Shown: positions 3,574 to 61,175, counted from the stretch's first letter. The stretch: 64,000 bases of DNA from Candidatus Daviesbacteria bacterium RIFCSPHIGHO2_01_FULL_41_45 (GCA_001776975.1 MFCS01000025.1:37407-101406); one strand, 5' to 3'. A program made the numbers and translations. The notes: generated from the letters alone by a model not told the origin.

Positions 3574-4044
3574 TTAAACCATGTGTGGGGTTCTATTGTG
3601 CAGAGCGTATTCAATCAATAGTAGTTGACTTTTTGAGATAGAAGGGAGATTTTCAAATGCGAAAAAGCCAAATTCAATTACTTCTGCAGACTTCTTAAAT
3701 TCTCCTCCAATATGCTGACCTACTACGGCTATCTCTAAGCGCGATGCTTCTCTATCAGTTCTAATTTTGAGTTGCTCTTCAGTACTCACCACAAGTCCTG
3801 ACTCTTCCATTATCTCCCGTTCAAGTGCTTCAAAAGGATGTTCTTTTGACTTAATGTATCCACCAGGCAAACTCCAAACTGTTTGTCGGTAAGTATGTTT
3901 AAAGAGTAAAATCTCCTTATTTTCATTAAAAATAATACCTGTTACTCCAATTAGAAACTGATCTTGAAAAATACGCATAAGCGTTAGCTGAATACCCTTA
4001 GGAAAGGACAGAGCACGCCAGGCCTTAGCAAGAAGGGTTTTCAC
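3574..4044 (-). CDS. NUDIX hydrolase
   Basis: Canonical Nudix box: LPGGYIKSKEHPFEALEREIMEESGL (GX5EX7REUXEEXGU). Confidence 0.8.
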   Translation of the reverse strand: MKTLLAKAWRALSFPKGIQLTLMRIFQDQFLIGVTGIIFNENKEILLFKHTYRQTVWSLPGGYIKSKEHPFEALEREIMEESGLVVSTEEQLKIRTDREASRLEIAVVGQHIGGEFKKSAEVIEFGFFAFENLPSISKSQLLLIEYALHNRTPHMV

Positions 4045-5074: not shown

Positions 5075-5127
5075 ATTTCATATATTACAACTATTGGTAG
5101 TTCCTGTCAAATAGCAAGCTAAGTATT

Positions 5128-5868
5128 TTAACCCTTTATTGGATCAGGGATTAAACAACCTGGAACTGTTAATAGCTCATCATATAGACTTGTGTTTCCA
5201 GTATATTCTTCCCAATCTCTAAACAAATTCTTCAATTTTATAAAAGTTTCTTCTTTAATAGAATCGTCAAGATAAGCAAACGGACAAATATGTTGGGGAG
5301 GATTACCTCCTTTTAGAATTCCTATTTCCACAGTCCCAAATCCAGCTGGCGCTCCTTTGTCAAAATCGCTAACCTCCGCAATGATTTGCCCTGCTGTTAC
5401 CCTATCACCTACTTTAACCTTAGGATTTATGACATGTTCTGTTTCATAAACCCATTTTTGCATTTTGCCATCTGCTGTAACTTGAATGGAGTAATCCCCA
5501 CTCCAAACAGTTGGCATGGCAGCTACTATCCCATCTACAATTGATCTGACTGGAGTACCTAATGGAACAATAAAAGTAGGCTGTGGATTATATTTTGCTG
5601 GATTATCATTACCTTTGGGAATATAAAAACCATATCCCATGAAAAGCCTTCCAACTTGCAGTTTCTCTTTAGTAAATTTAAAGTCAGAAAACTCTACCCC
5701 AATACTTTTAAGCTTAAGGGGTGGTTCATTTTCATTTTGAACTTGTACAGCTGGTGCAGAATATACCTGAGCAGAAGGACCATTTTGAACAACAGGTGCA
5801 GATTTTAATAGAAAAAAGGTTACAAGGCCTAAAATTAAAGTCAAACCAATGATTTTTATTAGCATCAA
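5128..5868 (-). CDS. Membrane-anchored M23/LytM-like peptidase-domain protein (possibly degenerate)
   Basis: N-terminal transmembrane segment. The C-terminal region GTPVRSIVDGIVAAM...YETEHV...VKVGDRVTAGQIIAEV resembles the M23 beta-barrel. Confidence 0.5.
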   Translation of the reverse strand: MMLIKIIGLTLILGLVTFFLLKSAPVVQNGPSAQVYSAPAVQVQNENEPPLKLKSIGVEFSDFKFTKEKLQVGRLFMGYGFYIPKGNDNPAKYNPQPTFIVPLGTPVRSIVDGIVAAMPTVWSGDYSIQVTADGKMQKWVYETEHVINPKVKVGDRVTAGQIIAEVSDFDKGAPAGFGTVEIGILKGGNPPQHICPFAYLDDSIKEETFIKLKNLFRDWEEYTGNTSLYDELLTVPGCLIPDPIKG

Positions 5869-34111: not shown

Positions 34112-34957
34112 ATGTTAGATAAGGGTCATTCTATCAAACTCAAGCCTATAAAATCAAGACATTGCATCAATCAACTAAAAAGGCTTAAGGTAGGAGCAAT
34201 AAACTTTAAATTTATGCCTGAGATTTGTTTAACTGGTCAAATTGCCGATCTTTTCAGACTTCAACAAGAAGAAAACAAGCGCGATTTTATTCCCATAAAC
34301 GATTTCACTAGTCAGCACTCTGTTTTTAACGGTTTTTTGGCCTCCAGACTTTTTGGATCTATTTTAGCTGATTTGAAAACATCCTCATGCAGGACAGCGT
34401 TGTCTAATCCAAGTGTCTGGGAATATTTTTTTAAAGAACTGCGCGGACGAGTCTTCCAGGACTTAGCATTTTATAAACTAAGCAAGCAACAACCTGTGAA
34501 TCAGACGGTGTTATCACCCAAGCATACCCTTACCATTTTTCATACTCTATACCCTGATATACCCAAAAAGAAACACCGATTAGGATTAGACACCCTCCGA
34601 TCAGTCCCTCCACATGACGCACTAATTATCCGCGATATGGCAGGTATACCTATTACAATTGGGGCCTGTGAAATGACACTTCATGATGATCTTGGGAATT
34701 ATAGGCGCAAATACTCCTGGTATAAAAGACATAAAAGTCGGTCACCAGATCTAAGGTACGCTAAGTGTTTATTTATTGTTCCCCAGGGCACTAAATCTAC
34801 CCCGAAAGAAAAACCGACCTTACAGATTATATCTGTAGACTTTGATCGCATGAGGTTTAATTCGTTAATGGGAGAAGTTCTGCAAATCTCTGGAGACGCA
34901 TCTTTAGTCAAAGCTCATCTATTACATACATTAAGAAACAGAGTGTTACCTGGCTAA
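34112..34957 (+). CDS. Hypothetical protein (281 aa), no recognisable domain
   Basis: Long ORF filling the rpsB-folA gap. Lone plus-strand gene in a long minus-strand run. Confidence 0.45.
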   Translation: MLDKGHSIKLKPIKSRHCINQLKRLKVGAINFKFMPEICLTGQIADLFRLQQEENKRDFIPINDFTSQHSVFNGFLASRLFGSILADLKTSSCRTALSNPSVWEYFFKELRGRVFQDLAFYKLSKQQPVNQTVLSPKHTLTIFHTLYPDIPKKKHRLGLDTLRSVPPHDALIIRDMAGIPITIGACEMTLHDDLGNYRRKYSWYKRHKSRSPDLRYAKCLFIVPQGTKSTPKEKPTLQIISVDFDRMRFNSLMGEVLQISGDASLVKAHLLHTLRNRVLPG

Positions 34958-35436
34958 CTGCCTCTTTCCAAAGTCATATATTTATAACTGTAATCTCCTG
35001 ATTGATGATTCTCTTCTTCTATTACCTTATTAAACCCAGAATAATCCGGGAAATAAACATCACCATCTAAGTCTCCTTTTATGAGTGTTAAATAAATCCG
35101 CTCTACTTTATTCATTACCTGTTGGTAGATCTCACCTCCACCGATAATAAATATCTCCTGGGCTCCAGGATTACCTTGAGCTTGTTGTAGAGCCTGCTCT
35201 ACAGAGTTCACTACAATACACCCCTCTGCTTTATATGTTGCATCCCTGGTGATAATAATATTTGTCCTGTTTGGTAAAGGTCTGCCAATAGATTGATGAG
35301 TTTTCCTACCCATAATAATCGGGTGTCCAGTGGTAATATTTTTAAATCTTTTTAAATCCTCTGGGATGTACCAAGGTAACCCTCCTTTTTTCCCAATCAC
35401 CATATTTTCAGAAGCAGCAACAATAATACTAATCAT
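34954..35436 (-). CDS. folA: Dihydrofolate reductase
   Basis: MISIIVAASENMVIGKKGGLPWYIPEDLKRFKNITTGHPIIMGRKT. Confidence 0.93.
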   Translation of the reverse strand: MISIIVAASENMVIGKKGGLPWYIPEDLKRFKNITTGHPIIMGRKTHQSIGRPLPNRTNIIITRDATYKAEGCIVVNSVEQALQQAQGNPGAQEIFIIGGGEIYQQVMNKVERIYLTLIKGDLDGDVYFPDYSGFNKVIEEENHQSGDYSYKYMTLERGS

Positions 35437-35567
35437 TGATTCATTGTGGCAACACCGGGTGTTGATTAGCTTCTAACATCGGGTTAATTACCTATTCCCA
35501 CCTCCAATGTAGGATGTTAACTTTTGGAAATCATAATTTCTGGAGTGGCATACATAAATTCTCATTG

Positions 35568-36578
35568 TTAAATTGTTTTAGGTTTTCCTTCAAATAATCC
35601 ACCCGAGACAGAAAGCTCGGCTTTTAAAACTGGGTGGGGATCATAATTTAATAGTTGAACATGCTCTGGCTGAAAATCCTCAAGTGTGGTGAGCGCCGGA
35701 TTTAGTTGGATGGTTGGCAACTGTTTTGGGATTCTGATTAGCTGTTCTTTAGCTTGATCCAAATGATTTTCATAGATATGAACATCCCCAAAAGTATGGA
35801 CAAAATCACCTACTTCGTAACCAGTAACCCTTGCCAAAATTATAGTTAACAGTGCATAAGAAGCAATATTAAACGGTACCCCCAAAAAGATGTCGGCACT
35901 TCTCTGGTAAAGATGGAGTGACAGCTTTCCATCAATTTGATTAATTTGGAACATATTATGGCAGATCGGAAAACGGCAGGCATCCTCATAAGATGCCATA
36001 GTATAAAGGTACTCTGGATTCCAGGAATTAACGATACAATTGTGGGCATTTGGATCCTCAACAATCTCATTGATCGCCCATTTTAACTGGTCAATAGTTC
36101 TCCCCTCCGTTCTGGTTGGCCACTTCCTCCAAAGCTCTCCATAAATCCTCGGCAACTCTCCCCATTTTTTAGAAAATTTTGCATCACTGGTAATTTTTTC
36201 AATAAACTCATCTTTACTTAAAACCGGTAAAATATTATCCTCACAGAATTTTTTATAAATTTTGTAGGGGTAATCGTCCCATATGTGAACCCCGTTATCC
36301 AGTAAATATTTAATATTGCTGTCACCTTTTATAAACCAACACAGTTCATGCAAAACCCCTTTCCAAAACACCTTCTTAGTAGTTAAGAGTGGAAAGCCTT
36401 TTGAAAGGTCAAACCTTATCTGACGACCAAATAAAGAATAGGAGGCATCCCCAGTCCCTCGGTCAACTTTTCTAAACCCCGTTTCTAGGATCTCTTTTAA
36501 TAAATTCAAATATTGATGCTCCGGATGTTCAGTCTCGCTATGTAAATCTACACCATTACCTGCTTTTGTCTTTAACAT
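35568..36578 (-). CDS. thyA: Thymidylate synthase ThyA (N-terminally extended)
   Basis: FPICHNMFQ...LHLYQRSADIFLGVPFNIASYALLT. Confidence 0.93.
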   Translation of the reverse strand: MLKTKAGNGVDLHSETEHPEHQYLNLLKEILETGFRKVDRGTGDASYSLFGRQIRFDLSKGFPLLTTKKVFWKGVLHELCWFIKGDSNIKYLLDNGVHIWDDYPYKIYKKFCEDNILPVLSKDEFIEKITSDAKFSKKWGELPRIYGELWRKWPTRTEGRTIDQLKWAINEIVEDPNAHNCIVNSWNPEYLYTMASYEDACRFPICHNMFQINQIDGKLSLHLYQRSADIFLGVPFNIASYALLTIILARVTGYEVGDFVHTFGDVHIYENHLDQAKEQLIRIPKQLPTIQLNPALTTLEDFQPEHVQLLNYDPHPVLKAELSVSGGLFEGKPKTI

Positions 36579-36579
36579 A

Positions 36580-37308
36580 CTACATTACTACTCCCAAACT
36601 GGGAGCAATCTCCTCTCTAAATAAAACGTGACTCCAAGCCTCTGGTTGAATCTGTCCACCTCTGGATAGGGCTAAGTACTCAGCAGGAGTAGTATACAGA
36701 TATCTAACATTCTCTCCTCCCTCTGTCCTAACCAACAACTCACTTTTGGGTAATATCAGGTCAATCCTACAAGCCAAACCTATGTGAACCTTGCTAATCT
36801 CATCAGTCTCATCCTTAATCAGTCCAGTAGGGGTAATTTTCATAACTTTTTTCATCGCTCTTAAATCTAACTTTCCATCAGTACCCATGAACTGTAACGG
36901 CTGTCCACCCACCCTTACCTCAGCCTCTTCATCCATCTCCCTATAAAAAGAATCTCCCAGTTTTAGATCACTTGGTTCAATATGTCCTCCAAGTCCTAAA
37001 GAAATCTTTCCAGCTAGCCTAGTCTCAGTATACTGCCCACCACCACCTCGCTGATACATTAAAAAACTATTATCTGGACGAATAACATATCCTACCAAAA
37101 TCAGTTGTTGCCACGATAAATCATTTTCTACGTTTTGTTCGCCATATCTTGGACGATACTCACCAACTCTATGTGCTAAATTCAGAAAACTTCGTAGAGT
37201 GCCCCGTTCATCCAATCGTTGATATAAAGATTGTCCATCACAATCTGCAGGAATAAATCCTGCTTCAACTAAGCTAGATCTCGGTATAGCGAAACACTCT
37301 TTAGCCAT
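36580..37308 (-). CDS. Nudix-superfamily hydrolase with a non-canonical Nudix box
   Basis: LILVGYVIRPDNSFLMYQRGGG...GLGGHIEPSDLKLGDSFYREMDEEAEV, with an extended loop between the G-x5-E and RE-x-EE elements. The probable start is the internal ATG at 37308, 1 nt after the stop of the upstream dcd paralog. The track ORF extends to 37407. Confidence 0.55.
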   Translation of the reverse strand: MAKECFAIPRSSLVEAGFIPADCDGQSLYQRLDERGTLRSFLNLAHRVGEYRPRYGEQNVENDLSWQQLILVGYVIRPDNSFLMYQRGGGGQYTETRLAGKISLGLGGHIEPSDLKLGDSFYREMDEEAEVRVGGQPLQFMGTDGKLDLRAMKKVMKITPTGLIKDETDEISKVHIGLACRIDLILPKSELLVRTEGGENVRYLYTTPAEYLALSRGGQIQPEAWSHVLFREEIAPSLGVVM

Positions 37309-37309
37309 C

Positions 37310-37879
37310 TTAAACTTGTTGCTCCTTTTTGTGGGATGAGACCCTACCGCCTTGGTGCTGTCCGCGATAGGAGACAGTTTTGCCTGAAATTTGTAAAAAT
37401 ACCACATTACAAATCCTAGCTCCTAATTGAAGTTTGACCGGAAAAGGTCCTAAATTTGTTAACCCCATGGTTAACCCGCCCTGATAACCCGGATCGGTTT
37501 TAGTGTTTAATAACAATAGTCCAGCCCTAAAAAGACTACTCCTGACATAAACTATCGGCATTAAATCTTGTGGGGTATTTAAACTCTCCCAGGTTTGCAC
37601 TAAATAATAATCCCCTGGCTTAACTGTCAACGTCTTTTGATTATCCGAGTCTGGATCAAATCTATATATCTCTTTGGTAGTAACCCCTTTTCTTTTTCCT
37701 AACCCCACCTTCCCATCAGCTTCTATAAAAGCTCCACCTTTGATAATTTTGTGGACTGATCCCAACCGTAAATCTACCCCCACTCCTTCCGGGTTCTCTA
37801 ATTCCCTAGCTCCTAGATTCTCCAGCAATTTATCTTTTTTAATTCTTTTTAATACTTGATCTAACCCCAAAACAGCCAT
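37310..37879 (-). CDS. dCTP deaminase/dUTPase-superfamily protein (divergent paralog)
   Basis: GVDLRLG and PGYQGGLT motifs of the Dcd/dUTPase beta-barrel. Confidence 0.7.
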   Translation of the reverse strand: MAVLGLDQVLKRIKKDKLLENLGARELENPEGVGVDLRLGSVHKIIKGGAFIEADGKVGLGKRKGVTTKEIYRFDPDSDNQKTLTVKPGDYYLVQTWESLNTPQDLMPIVYVRSSLFRAGLLLLNTKTDPGYQGGLTMGLTNLGPFPVKLQLGARICNVVFLQISGKTVSYRGQHQGGRVSSHKKEQQV

Positions 37880-38611
37880 CTAAATTTTCACCTTTCTAAC
37901 CCCTGGTTCATCTGCCACAATCGGAGTATTACTCCCCCCATATCTACTGGTTGGGCGTTCCATATAACTTCTGTCCACTGAAGCTCCTAGCTTTTCAAAT
38001 GAGAAAGCACAGATCGGTGCACCCTCATAAATGACAATTTTTTTACCTCTTAAAAATGTACCAAACTCTAAAACTGGCGCCCCATCCCAACCTGGATCAA
38101 ATCTAGCAGCTGTTGAATGAACCACCACCCCTATTCTGGCCAAAGACGATTTACCATTAAGATGGCCTACTATATTGTCCGGTAAAGTTAACCTCTCTTT
38201 GGTAGTAGCTATCACAAAATCATTCTCGGTGAGAATAAAGGGTTGTCCCGGTTTTAAAACTACTGTTTTCATCATCTCCTCTATATCAGCTTTACTGGCA
38301 TGCTTAGTATCAATAGTGTCCAACCCTTCCCGGTTAAAAACCTTTAAAACATTCCCTAAATGAAAATCTATGGTTACCTCATCTACCTCCAACTCCCAAT
38401 TTTCTGGAAGGGGATCAATTTTAATCACTCCCTTTTTAATCAACTCCCGGATGGCCCAATCAGGTAAAGTTCCTGTTAAGTTACCTGCTGAAAGCGAAGT
38501 CTTATTCGACTCTTTTTGAGAAACTGTTTGTTTTAGAAACTGCAATATATCGGAGTTGCTGGGTCCAGACATATTCAAGCCATTGATGTTAGCCTTTTTT
38601 ATTCTTGGCAT
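37880..38611 (-). CDS. dcd: dCTP deaminase
   Basis: VDEVTIDFHLG, GHLNGKSSLARIGVVVHSTAARFDPGWDG, GAPICAFSF. About 45-aa low-complexity N-terminal extension. Confidence 0.85.
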   Translation of the reverse strand: MPRIKKANINGLNMSGPSNSDILQFLKQTVSQKESNKTSLSAGNLTGTLPDWAIRELIKKGVIKIDPLPENWELEVDEVTIDFHLGNVLKVFNREGLDTIDTKHASKADIEEMMKTVVLKPGQPFILTENDFVIATTKERLTLPDNIVGHLNGKSSLARIGVVVHSTAARFDPGWDGAPVLEFGTFLRGKKIVIYEGAPICAFSFEKLGASVDRSYMERPTSRYGGSNTPIVADEPGVRKVKI

Positions 38612-38650
38612 AATCGAGTCTAACTAAGTTATACAAACTACTCAATATTT

Positions 38651-40267
38651 TCAAGTAGGCAAATGTACCTTACTGGCAGCTTGGATGAAACCTAAAAATA
38701 ACGGGTGGGGATTTAAAGGACGGCTTTTTAACTCTGGATGAAATTGGGTTCCCACAAAAAAAGGGTGTTTTTTAAGCTCTATTATCTCCACTAATTTTCC
38801 ATCAGGTGAGGTTCCCGAGATCGCCAAACCGTTTTTTAAAAACTCCTTCAGAAAATCATTGTTAAACTCAAAGCGGTGTCTGTGACGTTCTGAGATCTTT
38901 GGTCTTCCATAAAGTTTTCGCACCAAAGTCCCAGTTTTTAACTTACACTCCCAAGCCCCAAGTCTCATCGTCCCACCATAGTCTTTTTTTAGCAACTTTT
39001 TCTGCTGATCCGTCATCACATGAACCACCGGATATTTAGTATCAGGATCAATCTCGGTACTATTGGCTCCTAGATATCCCAAGACATTTCTGGCGTATTC
39101 AATTACCGCCATCTGTAATCCATAACAAAGACCAAAATAAGGCAGGTTATTCTCCCGGCAATATTTAACAGTTAAAATCTTTCCTTCTATATCCCGGGCT
39201 CCAAATCCGCCTGGAACAATAATTCCCTGGTAACCCTGTAAAAGCTCTGGATTTTTTTCCACCTTCCCGGAATCTAACCAAACCACCTCTGGCTTATACC
39301 CTAAGGTAAACGAGGCATGTTTTATCGCCTCAATCACCGAGATATAGGAATCGGTTAATACCCCACTCCCTGAGGTAAAATATTTTCCCACTATGCCAAT
39401 TTTCACTACCTTGTCTGCTTTTTCTGCCTTTTTAACAAAATCCCTCCAGAGTTTTAAGTTATTCTTTTTTCTCTTCAGCTTTAATTTTTTGAGAATTCTA
39501 TCTGTTAGATTCCCTTCCTCAAAGTTCAACGGGATATTATAGATATTATCTACATCAGGCGCTGCAATAATATCCTCCGCCTCGATGCCAGTATTAAAAG
39601 ACAATCTTTTAATTCTAGGCGCATCAATTGCCACCTCGGCCCGAGCTAGTAAAATATCCGGTTGAATACCTACTGAATTTAGCTCTTTGACACTCATCTG
39701 AACGGGCTTACTCTTCATCTCACCCAAAGTCCTAGGGATTGGTAGGTAGCTGATGTGGATATGAATCACATCGTCATGCTTCTTGAGTTTCAGCAGGCGG
39801 TTGGCTTCAAGAAACAAAACATTTTGGTACTCACCGGTAGTTCCTCCAATCTCCACTAAAACGATATCCGCGTTTTTATTCCTCCCAGCTTGATGAATCC
39901 GGTCAATAATTTCTTGGGTCACATTATGGATATCAACATAATCTCCGTCATACTCTAAATTTCTCTCTTTTTGGATAACCGATAAATAAATACTGCCTTG
40001 GGTGGCAATATTACTTGAATCAAGACTTTCATTCATAAATCTCTCGTAATGACCTAAATCCTGATCTGTTTCTTTACCATCATCTAAAACAAAAGTTTCC
40101 CCGTGCGCCAGCGGATTCATTGTCCCAGCATCAACATTTAAATAAGGATCCATTTTGATCACTGAGACCTTAAAGCCTGCTGATTTTAACAGTAGTCCAA
40201 TGGAGGCAGCAGCTATCCCTTTACCAATGCCTGATATCACACCACCAGAGACAAAAATATATTTCAT
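38651..40267 (-). CDS. pyrG: CTP synthase
   Basis: N-terminal GGVISGIGKGI and glutaminase GLCYGLQ motifs. Confidence 0.95.
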   Translation of the reverse strand: MKYIFVSGGVISGIGKGIAAASIGLLLKSAGFKVSVIKMDPYLNVDAGTMNPLAHGETFVLDDGKETDQDLGHYERFMNESLDSSNIATQGSIYLSVIQKERNLEYDGDYVDIHNVTQEIIDRIHQAGRNKNADIVLVEIGGTTGEYQNVLFLEANRLLKLKKHDDVIHIHISYLPIPRTLGEMKSKPVQMSVKELNSVGIQPDILLARAEVAIDAPRIKRLSFNTGIEAEDIIAAPDVDNIYNIPLNFEEGNLTDRILKKLKLKRKKNNLKLWRDFVKKAEKADKVVKIGIVGKYFTSGSGVLTDSYISVIEAIKHASFTLGYKPEVVWLDSGKVEKNPELLQGYQGIIVPGGFGARDIEGKILTVKYCRENNLPYFGLCYGLQMAVIEYARNVLGYLGANSTEIDPDTKYPVVHVMTDQQKKLLKKDYGGTMRLGAWECKLKTGTLVRKLYGRPKISERHRHRFEFNNDFLKEFLKNGLAISGTSPDGKLVEIIELKKHPFFVGTQFHPELKSRPLNPHPLFLGFIQAASKVHLPT

Positions 40268-40549
40268 AATTTGTTAACTAAAATTAATTTGACCTGCAAA
40301 CACATCATCTGCTTGACGCTCCAAATCTAAAACCCTCTGCCAATAACCAACTCCTGATTGTGCAGACCTGACCCCAAATACCTGCTTCAGGTACCTACCC
40401 GGAATCAATACTTCTCTGGCTCTAATTACACCAAAAGTTGCCGGAATAGCGCAATCTTCCACGATACTAGATGGCAAGTTAAGTATTTCAACTGACAGCA
40501 TGATTATTGCGAACAGAATAACCTAGAATGTGGACAAGTTGTCAATACC

Positions 40550-56668: not shown

Positions 56669-56742
56669 GCCGAGATAGCTCAGTTGGCTAGAGCGCCACT
56701 TTTGTAAAGTGGATGTCCGGGGTTCGAATCCCCGTCTCGGCT
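56669..56742 (+). tRNA. tRNA-Thr (anticodon UGU)
   Basis: Manual cloverleaf: acceptor GCCGAGA/TCTCGGC, D-arm GCTC..GAGC, anticodon stem CCACT/AGTGG with loop TTTGTAA, T-arm CGGGG-TTCGAAT-CCCCG. Confidence 0.85.
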
Positions 56743-56808: not shown

Positions 56809-56880
56809 GCCGAAGTGGCTCAGTGGTAGAGCACGTTCTTGGTAAGAACGGGGTCACGGGTCCGATTCCCGTCTTCGGCT
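56809..56880 (+). tRNA. tRNA-Thr (anticodon GGU), CCA encoded at 56881-56883
   Basis: Acceptor GCCGAAG/CTTCGGC, anticodon stem CGTTC/GAACG with loop TTGGTAA, T-loop TCCGATT. Confidence 0.85.
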
Positions 56881-57726: not shown

Positions 57727-57797
57727 AGGCCTGTCGTTCAATGGTAGGACAGCGGTCTCCAAAACCACTAACGAGGGTTCGATTCCTTCCAGGCCTG
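57727..57797 (+). tRNA. tRNA-Trp (anticodon CCA)
   Basis: Acceptor AGGCCTG/CAGGCCT, anticodon stem GCGGT/ACCAC (one C-A mismatch) with loop CTCCAAA, T-arm GAGGG-TTCGATT-CCTTC. Confidence 0.75.
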
Positions 57798-59620: not shown

Positions 59621-60151
59621 CTAATATAACTTGGGGTTTTTGAAGGGGATTAAAGCCAAGATCATGGCTTGTTCGTAATAAGTTGTCCTGGTAATAGTAT
59701 CATTTGTTAATATACCTACCGCACCATTTGCTTGTTTCGAATTAGTTCTACCAAAAACAATATCATCTGCCTCCCCTAATTCTTTACCTTGTTTAATTAA
59801 TTCAGTCACTTTTTTAGGCAGGTAAAACGATGCCGTCCGACCTTTCCCTATTTTACCATTTTTAGCTTTAACCACTATCCAAGCAAAGGCTTCCATCTCA
59901 CGACCTACTTCCTGCAAACCACCCTCTATCCCTACCCAGTAGTCAGAGGTGGGTTTTAATTTAGAAACGTTTTCTACTCTATTGATGGCTCCCTTTAATG
60001 TCTCCTCCTCACTTAGTGGTTGATCTGAAACATTTGACGGGGTAGATTCTCCTTCGATTTTAATCAACATTTCTGGGAACATCTTTGCAAATCCAATCTC
60101 AACAGCATTTATCTTCACTGGATTAGTTGACGCCACAAATACCTTTTTCAT
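59621..60151 (-). CDS. Inosine/xanthosine triphosphatase (YjjX/NTPase_I-T family)
   Basis: VFVASTNPVKINAV...SDQPLSEEETLKGAINR...DYWVGIEGG...ELG...NGAVGILT...ALIPFKN. Confidence 0.8.
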   Translation of the reverse strand: MKKVFVASTNPVKINAVEIGFAKMFPEMLIKIEGESTPSNVSDQPLSEEETLKGAINRVENVSKLKPTSDYWVGIEGGLQEVGREMEAFAWIVVKAKNGKIGKGRTASFYLPKKVTELIKQGKELGEADDIVFGRTNSKQANGAVGILTNDTITRTTYYEQAMILALIPFKNPKLY

Positions 60152-60158
60152 TTAATAA

Positions 60159-61175
60159 TTACTTCTTAAAAGCCTCAATAATATCTTTTTTAACTTCACC
60201 GGTACTTTTTCCTTGAAACTCAAATCCACAAGCATTAAAATGTCCCCCTCCAATACCCCCAATTTTAGACAGCTCCTCTGGTAGGTTTATTAAATTATTT
60301 TTGCTCCCCCGGCAAGAAACACTGACTCTGCCATGATTTTTTTCCCGAAGCACAATTCCTCGGTCATAACCCTCAATCGAGGTAGAGATTTCGCTATTAA
60401 AAATATTTTTTATCATTTTTTGTTGATCTTCATTAAATCCTGATTTTTTAATCTGCTCAAAAGACAGGTCTAAAAAAATAGTTTTTACCTCATCTGAAAA
60501 TTCTAAATTTTGAATAATCCAGGAAAGTAAAAATAAATAATCTTTAGATTTTGAGGAAAACATTTTGTGAATAAGAGTTTTATTATCTGCTCCAAGTTGG
60601 ATTAATTTTGCAGCCAACATCAATGTTTTATCAGTAAAGGCCCACTGAAAATTTCCAGTGTCTCCCATTATTGCGACATAAGCCAGGGTGGCTGTTTTAT
60701 CATCTAAAAAACTTGGGTTAACAACCTGATCAAGTAAAACCTCCATTGTTGATGAGGCTTGAGGATCATGAATAATTAATTTACCCAACTCCTCTGTCCT
60801 ACTTGAATGATGGTCTATATGAATCCTCTTGGGATAAATCTCTAAGTTAGGTGGATTCTCTTTTGTTTCATCAGTATCATAATATTGAGTTAAACTAGAT
60901 CCATCTAAAAATATTAGCGTATCAGCATTTCTTTTTGATAAAATTTCTCTGCTATCTTGTTCTATTATCTCATCAAAATATGGTAAAAAATTATTAGCCT
61001 GTTTTTCCTGCTCGGTTAGTTTTCTGGGGAACATTAACATAACTTCTTTATTTAAACTTTCCAGATATTTTTTCAAAACTAGTCCGCTACCAAGACAATC
61101 AAGATCCAATGGGTCAGAGGAGATTACCAGTATTTTCTGGTCTCCTTGGATATACTCCAGAAATTTATTATTCAT
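60159..61175 (-). CDS. nrnA: DHH/DHHA1 phosphoesterase (NrnA-like nanoRNase/pAp phosphatase)
   Basis: DHH motif in IHIDHHSS, DHHA1 GGGH motif in IGGIGGGHFNACGF. Confidence 0.8.
   Translation of the reverse strand: MNNKFLEYIQGDQKILVISSDPLDLDCLGSGLVLKKYLESLNKEVMLMFPRKLTEQEKQANNFLPYFDEIIEQDSREILSKRNADTLIFLDGSSLTQYYDTDETKENPPNLEIYPKRIHIDHHSSRTEELGKLIIHDPQASSTMEVLLDQVVNPSFLDDKTATLAYVAIMGDTGNFQWAFTDKTLMLAAKLIQLGADNKTLIHKMFSSKSKDYLFLLSWIIQNLEFSDEVKTIFLDLSFEQIKKSGFNEDQQKMIKNIFNSEISTSIEGYDRGIVLREKNHGRVSVSCRGSKNNLINLPEELSKIGGIGGGHFNACGFEFQGKSTGEVKKDIIEAFKK

Follow-up and report, generated by a model that had tools for sequence, protein, structure and literature searches.

A six-gene block for thymidylate synthesis

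We analysed 64,000 nucleotides of the genome of Candidatus Daviesbacteria bacterium RIFCSPHIGHO2_01_FULL_41_45 (GCA_001776975.1, MFCS01000025.1:37407-101406), hereafter the window, in which six consecutive minus-strand open reading frames (ORFs), pyrG, dcd1, dcd2, a Nudix-like gene, thyA and folA, form a compact block (Table 1). All six are present where a first-pass annotation of the sequence had placed them, all but the Nudix-like gene with strong family matches, and the family models bear out its picture of a coherent module leading from CTP through dCTP, dUTP and dUMP to dTMP. Every gene of the block belongs to a known family. The block is an ordinary metabolic operon, and to call it unusually complete, as had been done, overstates the case: related Microgenomates hold rearranged versions of it in the same topA...rpsB slot.

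Any cell or phage with thymidylate synthesis of its own has to destroy dUTP and supply dUMP, and many reduced genomes appear to have no dut gene. Two answers seem to lie side by side at this locus: a probable Dcd-fold dUTPase next to a true Dcd, and a Nudix enzyme.

Table 1 Features of the block and its spacers (window coordinates; cut-offs are those of the respective models)
Feature	Coordinates	Strand	Evidence or remark
pyrG, CTP synthase, 538 aa	38651..40267	-	NF003792 679 bits (cut-off 308); Pfam CTP_synth_N and GATase
dcd1, dCTP deaminase, 243 aa	37880..38611	-	TIGR02274 132.5 bits (cut-off 92.8)
dcd2, Dcd-fold paralog, probable dUTP diphosphatase, 189 aa	37310..37879	-	Pfam DCD 84 bits; Pfam dUTPase 31.7 (cut-off 22)
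YmaB/TM1382-family Nudix protein, probable (d)NTP pyrophosphohydrolase, 242 aa	36580..37308	-	fold and family profile
thyA, thymidylate synthase, long form, 336 aa	35568..36578	-	NF002496 362.7 bits (cut-off 325); PF00303 313 bits
thyA-folA spacer, 131 nt	35437..35567	.	non-coding
folA, dihydrofolate reductase, 160 aa	34954..35436	-	PF00186 190.5 bits, full length
topA-pyrG spacer, 282 nt, likely promoter/leader of the block	40268..40549	.	sole long non-coding gap upstream

From pyrG to folA the intergenic gaps measure 39, 0, 1, 1 and 131 nt. At the three tight junctions, which join dcd1, dcd2, the Nudix gene and thyA, the stop codon TAG is directly followed by ATG in the first, and the other two read TAA-G-ATG and TAG-T-ATG. 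A Shine-Dalgarno-like motif lies within the upstream gene at each of them, which is consistent with translational coupling. The surroundings are a minus-strand housekeeping run, with mreC, PBP2, dprA and topA on one side of the block and rpsB, tsf, frr, rseP and onward to tig on the other. Because nearly all long ORFs between ~14.7 and 47 kb lie on the minus strand, co-directionality alone is uninformative; what goes beyond chance is the 0-1 nt junctions together with the functional coherence of the genes, not the shared strand.

Dcd1 and its paralog Dcd2

Judged by its catalytic glutamate and its equivalog score, Dcd1 is a bona fide dCTP deaminase. Its best match in the Protein Data Bank (PDB) is E. 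coli Dcd (1xs1, E 7.8e-25), and it retains 'KSSLARIG' and 'VLEF', which align to 'RSSLARLG' (the Ser111/Arg115 motif) and 'VLEF' (with the catalytic Glu, E138) of the E. coli enzyme. About 45 N-terminal residues of Dcd1 (38470-38611, minus strand) are without counterpart in E. coli Dcd; the extension is shorter in the orthologue of a relative, locus L001 of those fetched for comparison, and alternative downstream starts are possible.

Dcd2 departs from this pattern at the catalytic position. In an alignment of ten sequences the glutamate column holds E in all presumed deaminases, namely E. coli Dcd, Dcd1, the L001 orthologue of Dcd1, the Dcd of a Daviesbacteria relative (L004), the Dcd domain of a Nudix-Dcd fusion described below (P0235) and the B. 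halodurans protein 4xjc. The same column is Gly in Dcd2 ('LTMGL') and in its 72%-identical L001 orthologue, and M in two archaeal-like PDB chains of 155-156 aa, which together with 4xjc are the best PDB matches of Dcd2. Dcd2 and its L001 orthologue keep RSS, DPGY and R-I-C-N, in Dcd2 as 'VRSSLFRAG', 'TDPGYQGG' and 'ARICN', corresponding to motifs II (RSS), III (the Asp in D-P-G-Y) and IV (R-x-x-Q/N) of trimeric dUTPases; at the R-I-C-N position the monofunctional-like Dcd1 carries P-I-C-A.

With archaeal-type Dcd-fold dUTPases and with bifunctional Dcd-Dut enzymes (for example B. halodurans 4xjc, M. jannaschii 1ogh, M. tuberculosis 2qxx), Dcd2 shares the fold, the length class and the motifs RSS, DPG(W/F/Y) and R-x-x-(Q/N). 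It differs from the bifunctional enzymes in having no deaminase Glu, and deaminase and putative pyrophosphatase are separate, adjacent genes in the window. Archaea are known to have Dcd-like dUTPases (M. jannaschii MJ1102, P. furiosus), which serve here as a lead only.

Gene order in relatives adds a further argument. The L001 block runs pyrG-kinase-dcd1-thyA-folA-dcd2 and that of L004 pyrG-kinase-dcd-dut-tmk/thyX, with a canonical dut (NF001862 101.6 bits, just under the cut-off of 103); dcd2 and canonical dut therefore alternate within the same block. A 758-aa ORF in L004 (6709-8985), with a thymidylate-kinase domain and a faint ThyX (Thy1) signal, possibly a Tmk-ThyX fusion, stands there in place of thyA-folA.

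As had been noted at first sight, no canonical dut is detectable in the window by tblastn with the canonical Dut of a relative, and neither a dUTPase nor a thymidylate kinase is found among the called genes in the ~7.5-10 kb past either window end, so that the search for dut covered about 82 kb of the genome. Nor did tblastn detect tmk, thyX or the AAA_17 kinase of the relatives in the window.

The exchange of Glu for Gly, the retained dUTPase motifs and the canonical dut in a relative's block lend weight to the proposal, already made in the first-pass annotation, that the paralog is a candidate dUTP pyrophosphatase. We consider Dcd2 a probable dUTP diphosphatase, which would explain the 'missing' dut. 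The first-pass annotation also named, as an opposing case, an inactive duplication, and this finds no support: neither paralog detects the other by tblastn at E 1e-2, and a pair so divergent does not stem from a recent duplication.

Two scores tell against the assignment of Dcd2. The protein falls below both equivalog cut-offs, reaching 90.0 bits with TIGR02274 (cut-off 92.8) and 64.3 bits with the archaeal-type dut model NF002598 (cut-off 130), though the latter alignment is full-length; because both cut-offs are missed, the assignment is built on motifs and displacement logic. These missed thresholds would also suit a different division of labour, in which the Nudix protein would be the real dUTPase or a dCTP-to-dCMP enzyme, and Dcd2 would do something else, for instance as an inactive or regulatory subunit or with a pyrophosphatase activity of other specificity; the Nudix-Dcd fusion, which mimics a bifunctional Dcd-Dut, fits this as well. 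We think it improbable, as Dcd2 keeps dUTPase-type motifs, passes the Pfam dUTPase model, is conserved in L001 and gives way to canonical dut in L004, a locus that also has the Nudix gene.

For the annotation of genomes of the candidate phyla radiation (CPR), reading the second 'dCTP deaminase' as a probable dUTPase is a gain: otherwise 'dCTP deaminase' is called twice and dut is reported missing.

The Nudix protein belongs to the YmaB/TM1382 family

The Nudix gene starts at ATG 37308, where its orthologues begin M-x-K-E-C; a longer ORF from 37407 would overlap dcd2. The product matches, at 100% identity, a hypothetical protein from Candidatus Daviesbacteria bacterium RIFCSPLOWO2_02_FULL_40_8 (Patescibacteria, or CPR, Microgenomates group). 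It has no Pfam or NCBIfam match of its own and no PF00293 hit at E<=0.1; nine of ten sampled relatives match PF00293, five of them above the cut-off.

Its Nudix box, G108-HIEPS-D114-(8 residues)-R123 E124 M D E127 E128 A E V, is indeed irregular, as the first reading had it. Compared with the consensus GX5EX7REUXEEXGU, R123, E124, E127 and E128 are kept, D114 stands for the first E, the spacer is one residue longer (8, not 7) and E130 takes the place of the penultimate G. A fully canonical box is found in some family members (P0012, P0027). The 19 family-invariant residues are all present in the window protein (R54, E61, Q68, R87, E95, R97, G105, G107, G108, H109, R123, E124, E127, E128, D166, H175, G177, E223 and W225), and the near-invariant Y72 is Val. 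The RE..EE metal-binding helix, invariant across the family, is intact. By these residues the protein is an intact family member and probably catalytically competent.

An AlphaFold2 model built from 65 sequences (predicted local distance difference test, pLDDT, 93.8; predicted template modelling score, pTM, 0.90) has as its best Foldseek match T. maritima TM1382 (3e57; E 1e-10, TM-score 0.81 on the target), followed by isopentenyl diphosphate (IPP) isomerase, NudI, YfcD and MutT2. The best 50 of 133 PDB fold matches at E<=1e-3 are all Nudix-fold, mostly hydrolases and type-1 IPP isomerases, and on the strength of this model the 242-aa protein is a true Nudix fold. An identity as IPP isomerase, to which the second-best fold matches belong, was rejected, since the RE..EE motif of hydrolases does not vary across the family.

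TM1382 is also the one match of a single-sequence PDB search with the window protein (E 1.3e-3), and a 125-sequence family profile aligns with 3e57 over the full length (E 8.5e-46), with MutT-type chains weakly matched. An exhaustive profile search gathered, at E<=1e-3, representatives of 2,876 clusters, most of them 190-250 aa long, the named ones bearing the source label 'predicted NUDIX family phosphoesterase'. B. subtilis YmaB (YMAB_BACSU) is matched by BLASTP at E 5e-11, with 31% identity over 134 aa of the core, and by the CPR-subfamily profile with an hhalign probability of 99.5% (E 3.9e-22). On these sequence comparisons the window protein is a member of the YmaB/TM1382 family; in PHROGs the family matches phrog_8902, whose function is unknown there.

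The two best-known members frame the comparison. TM1382, a 'putative Nudix hydrolase', is the best match in both sequence and fold and agrees in domain layout, down to the N-terminal extension. The entry comes from structural genomics and carries no assigned substrate, and structural alignment with the window protein gives 17% identity. YmaB is homologous, shares the motifs S-x-G-x-GGH, RE..EE, NDD..VG.VH.G and E-x-W, and is likewise encoded among DNA-precursor genes, as the last gene of nrdI-nrdE-nrdF-ymaB. Compared with YmaB, the window protein is longer at the N-terminus and carries ~25 additional, CPR-specific residues inserted behind the Nudix helix, and the partners differ: Dcd, Dcd2, ThyA and FolA in the window, a class Ib ribonucleotide reductase (RNR) in B. 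subtilis. For this uncharacterised family a crystal structure, that of TM1382, has existed since 2008, and one member, YmaB, is encoded in a well-studied RNR operon; a literature search for TM1382, COG4112, PDB 8Y1W and MJ1102 gave no relevant paper.

Gene neighbourhoods of the family

In viruses and prophages the typical order is nrdI-nrdE-nrdF-Nudix(-thyA-folA). Two Bacillaceae prophage-like loci, from Sporosarcina (L160) and Peribacillus (L159), read grx-nrdI-nrdE-nrdF-Nudix-thyA-folA, and in three IMG/VR loci (L187, L188, L190) nrdI-nrdE-nrdF are followed by a 206-aa family member whose sequence is exactly that of UniProt YMAB_BACSU. Within 6 kb of the Nudix gene, the 52 viral loci hold NrdE (33/52), NrdF (26/52), NrdI (25/52), ThyA (17/52) and DHFR (12/52). 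The homologue in Bacillus phage HSE3, gp107, is annotated 'enzyme involved in deoxyribonucleotide synthesis', and Geobacillus phage GR1 combines DNA polymerase, dUTPase, Nudix, thioredoxin and guanylate kinase.

The same company is kept in archaea and on metagenomic contigs. An uncultured archaeon (L008) has tmk<-Nudix->thyA-folA and a micrarchaeote (L162) tmk->Nudix with a 21-nt gap. Archaeal or unassigned contigs show Nudix-thyX-tmk (L110), Nudix-thyA-folA (L114) and thyA-Nudix (L124); L119 reads nrdE-nrdF-dcd2-like-Nudix, and in L115 and L131 tmk lies ~1 kb from the Nudix gene. One contig (L005, 1333-2574) encodes a natural fusion of 413 aa, P0235, in which a Nudix domain is joined to a Dcd that has the catalytic Glu (TIGR02274 146 bits); tmk and thyX come next on the contig.

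Among 20 close metagenomic loci of the CPR subfamily, in the topA...rpsB-tsf slot, an AAA_17 kinase gene lies immediately upstream in 8 and tmk immediately downstream in 4, and some have the order kinase->Nudix->tmk. This kinase is similar to PRK08356 and to the kinase domain of anti-phage dCTP deaminases, and only weakly similar to (d)CMP kinases. It is encoded at 9529-10098 in L001, where it overlaps the end of pyrG, at 10148-10717 in L004, and in L091-L102.

Altogether, same-strand immediate adjacency to thyA, thyX, tmk, nrdF or dcd is found in at least six unrelated lineages, far above a rough expectation of ~0.1-0.3% per locus for a single-copy pair, which is an estimate and not a computed statistic. 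Family membership and recurrence beside RNR, thyA/thyX, tmk and dcd thus favour, as context, the first-pass suggestion that the Nudix protein acts on deoxynucleotides.

The first-pass annotation had offered an alternative tied to folate, in which the Nudix protein would be a NudB-like dihydroneopterin-triphosphate pyrophosphatase supplying folate for ThyA and FolA. Nudix enzymes of this specificity do occur in folate clusters, such as Lactococcus ylgG, and a Nudix-thyA-folA trio recurs in the window, L008, L114 and L160. We nonetheless give this idea scarcely any credence. Similarity to NudB does not exceed that of a generic Nudix fold, no NudB chain being among the profile or fold matches listed for the family; the fetched loci that were examined show no gene of folate biosynthesis; and the partners Tmk, ThyX, RNR and fused Dcd have no link to pterins. 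To our knowledge, phages and CPR or DPANN organisms are generally without de novo folate synthesis.

A proposed pathway to dTMP

From the sequence evidence we lean towards a single operon that would lead from CTP-derived dCTP to dTMP, with Dcd2 as the organism's dUTP diphosphatase and the Nudix protein most likely a deoxynucleoside triphosphate (dNTP) pyrophosphohydrolase, probably one for pyrimidines. PyrG would make CTP, and ribonucleotide reduction, encoded elsewhere, would precede the Dcd1 step, in which dCTP would be deaminated to dUTP. Dcd2, presumably without deaminase activity, would convert dUTP to dUMP, which ThyA would methylate while FolA would recycle dihydrofolate. The Nudix enzyme would split a dNTP, probably a pyrimidine such as dUTP or dCTP, into dNMP and pyrophosphate (PPi), and could act as a second supplier of dUMP, as a safeguard against dUTP or as a pool valve of the dUMP/dTMP branch. 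We favour dUTP or dCTP as its substrate because of the fusion to Dcd and the adjacency to thyA, thyX and tmk.

Such chemistry has precedents in the pyrimidine (d)NTP pyrophosphohydrolases NudI and NudG of E. coli and mycobacterial MutT2, which have the Nudix fold and the proposed reaction, dNTP to dNMP and PPi, in common with the window protein; NudI and MutT2 are also among the structural neighbours of its model. These enzymes differ in being much smaller, at ~130-150 aa, and without the N- and C-terminal motifs of the family, and they show no specific sequence relationship to it, so that the likeness is one of proposed function only.

Several observations weigh against the pathway as drawn. 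The Nudix-Dcd fusion is seen on one 4.6-kb metagenomic contig only. Thymidylate-type neighbours occur in only 2 of 80 loci from larger genomes (L008 and L048), of Planctomycetota, Dependentiae, Chloroflexota and others; by a look at the sequences, without family search, the commonest neighbours there resemble LeuRS, QueA, TrpC, IscA, cysteine desulfurase and transketolase, a lineage-specific synteny with no dNTP signal, and the association is therefore not family-wide. No thymidylate context was found in the closest metagenomic relatives (L086-L088) or in two Aenigmarchaeota loci; in L088, a CMP/dCMP-type deaminase gene lies ~1 kb from the Nudix homologue. A dUTPase gene, moreover, accompanies the Nudix gene in the window (dcd2), L004 (dut), phage GR1 and L119. 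Were the Nudix protein a plain dUTPase, it would be redundant in such loci, and this frequent co-occurrence speaks against its being simply redundant with Dut.

Position tells against the pathway as well. In L001 and L004 the Nudix gene faces the block in convergent orientation, and in CPR loci without dcd or thyA (L091-L102) it keeps the topA...rpsB slot, so part of its adjacency may be inherited synteny. Taken to its limit, this would make the gene a mere resident of the slot around which thymidylate genes were inserted, and the adjacency would have no functional meaning. We find this highly improbable: in the window the gene has changed orientation and is fitted between dcd2 and thyA, 1 nt from each, and such associations have arisen separately in phages of Firmicutes and in archaea.

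A broader role in pool control deserves more weight, though we still judge it rather unlikely. The Nudix protein would then be a general dNTP pool controller or house-cleaner, acting for example on dATP to give dAMP or on damaged dNTPs, and would not feed ThyA specifically. The commonest partner in Firmicutes prophages is RNR, not ThyA; dedicated dUTPases co-occur with the Nudix gene; and the weak profile matches of the family are MutT/MTH1-type enzymes. For recombinant YmaB, PMC5960316 reports preliminary thesis data on activity as a 'dNTP pyrophosphohydrolase', in those general terms, and speculates that YmaB makes dAMP for NrdE. That idea, however, concerns class Ib NrdE, which is not near this Nudix gene in CPR. 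The fusion partner is Dcd, at least six unrelated lineages have thyA, thyX or tmk directly beside the Nudix gene, and the window organism already has another canonical Nudix protein and an ITPase-like NTPase.

A second-hand remark in PMC10860749, which calls YmaB an RNA pyrophosphohydrolase, points away from nucleotide pools altogether, towards an RppH-like RNA 5'-pyrophosphohydrolase or decapping enzyme; the same paper describes a viable delta-ymaB strain of B. subtilis, and a viable strain of this kind exists as BKK17400. We regard an RNA role as very unlikely, since the contexts of the family are dNTP-metabolic and not of RNA decay and the Dcd fusion is contrary to it as well. The attribution to YmaB may moreover be loose, as the title of the paper cited for it concerns YvcI.

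Returning to the dTMP branch, we tentatively extend the proposal to the family as a whole. YmaB/TM1382 proteins might be a conserved, so far unrecognised component of thymidylate synthesis, a Nudix route in which dUMP would come from the hydrolysis of dUTP/dUDP or dCTP. The route would be coupled physically or transcriptionally to Dcd, RNR, ThyA/ThyX and Tmk in Firmicutes and their phages, CPR and DPANN, and would replace or back up Dut in some lineages; the odds are against so general a role. The cross-domain context ties this uncharacterised family to thymidylate and dNTP supply, and the neighbourhoods, the Dcd fusion included, narrow its likely substrates to deoxynucleotides of the dTMP branch, which makes a testable hypothesis.

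Spacers and other genes of the window

An Rfam scan of the window gave no match in the 131-nt thyA-folA spacer or the 282-nt topA-pyrG spacer; its only matches are three tRNAs far from the block (56669-56742, 56809-56880 and 57727-57797, plus strand). Promoter- and terminator-like sites are not enriched over shuffled sequence. The thyA-folA spacer has one promoter-like hit, overlapping the folA start, and its hits are no more numerous than in shuffles. A 75-aa ORF in the topA-pyrG spacer has no family match and no relative among the fetched loci.

Convergent with folA and overlapping its end by 4 nt is a putative 281-aa ORF (34112-34957, plus strand), with no Pfam or NCBIfam match and no relative in the fetched loci, the syntenic L001 and L004 included. 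In L087, a 616-kb contig, a gene for a ThsB-like TIR domain (Thoeris defence; 5110-5487) lies ~500 nt from the Nudix homologue.

The window holds a second, canonical NUDIX gene of 156 aa (3574-4044, minus strand; PF00293 in the precomputed annotation), which makes at least two Nudix enzymes within 35 kb. A further nucleotide-sanitising pair is formed by an NTPase_I-T gene (59621-60151, minus strand), ITPase/XTPase-like and of the house-cleaning type, and the adjoining DHH/DHHA1 phosphoesterase gene (60159-61175, minus strand).

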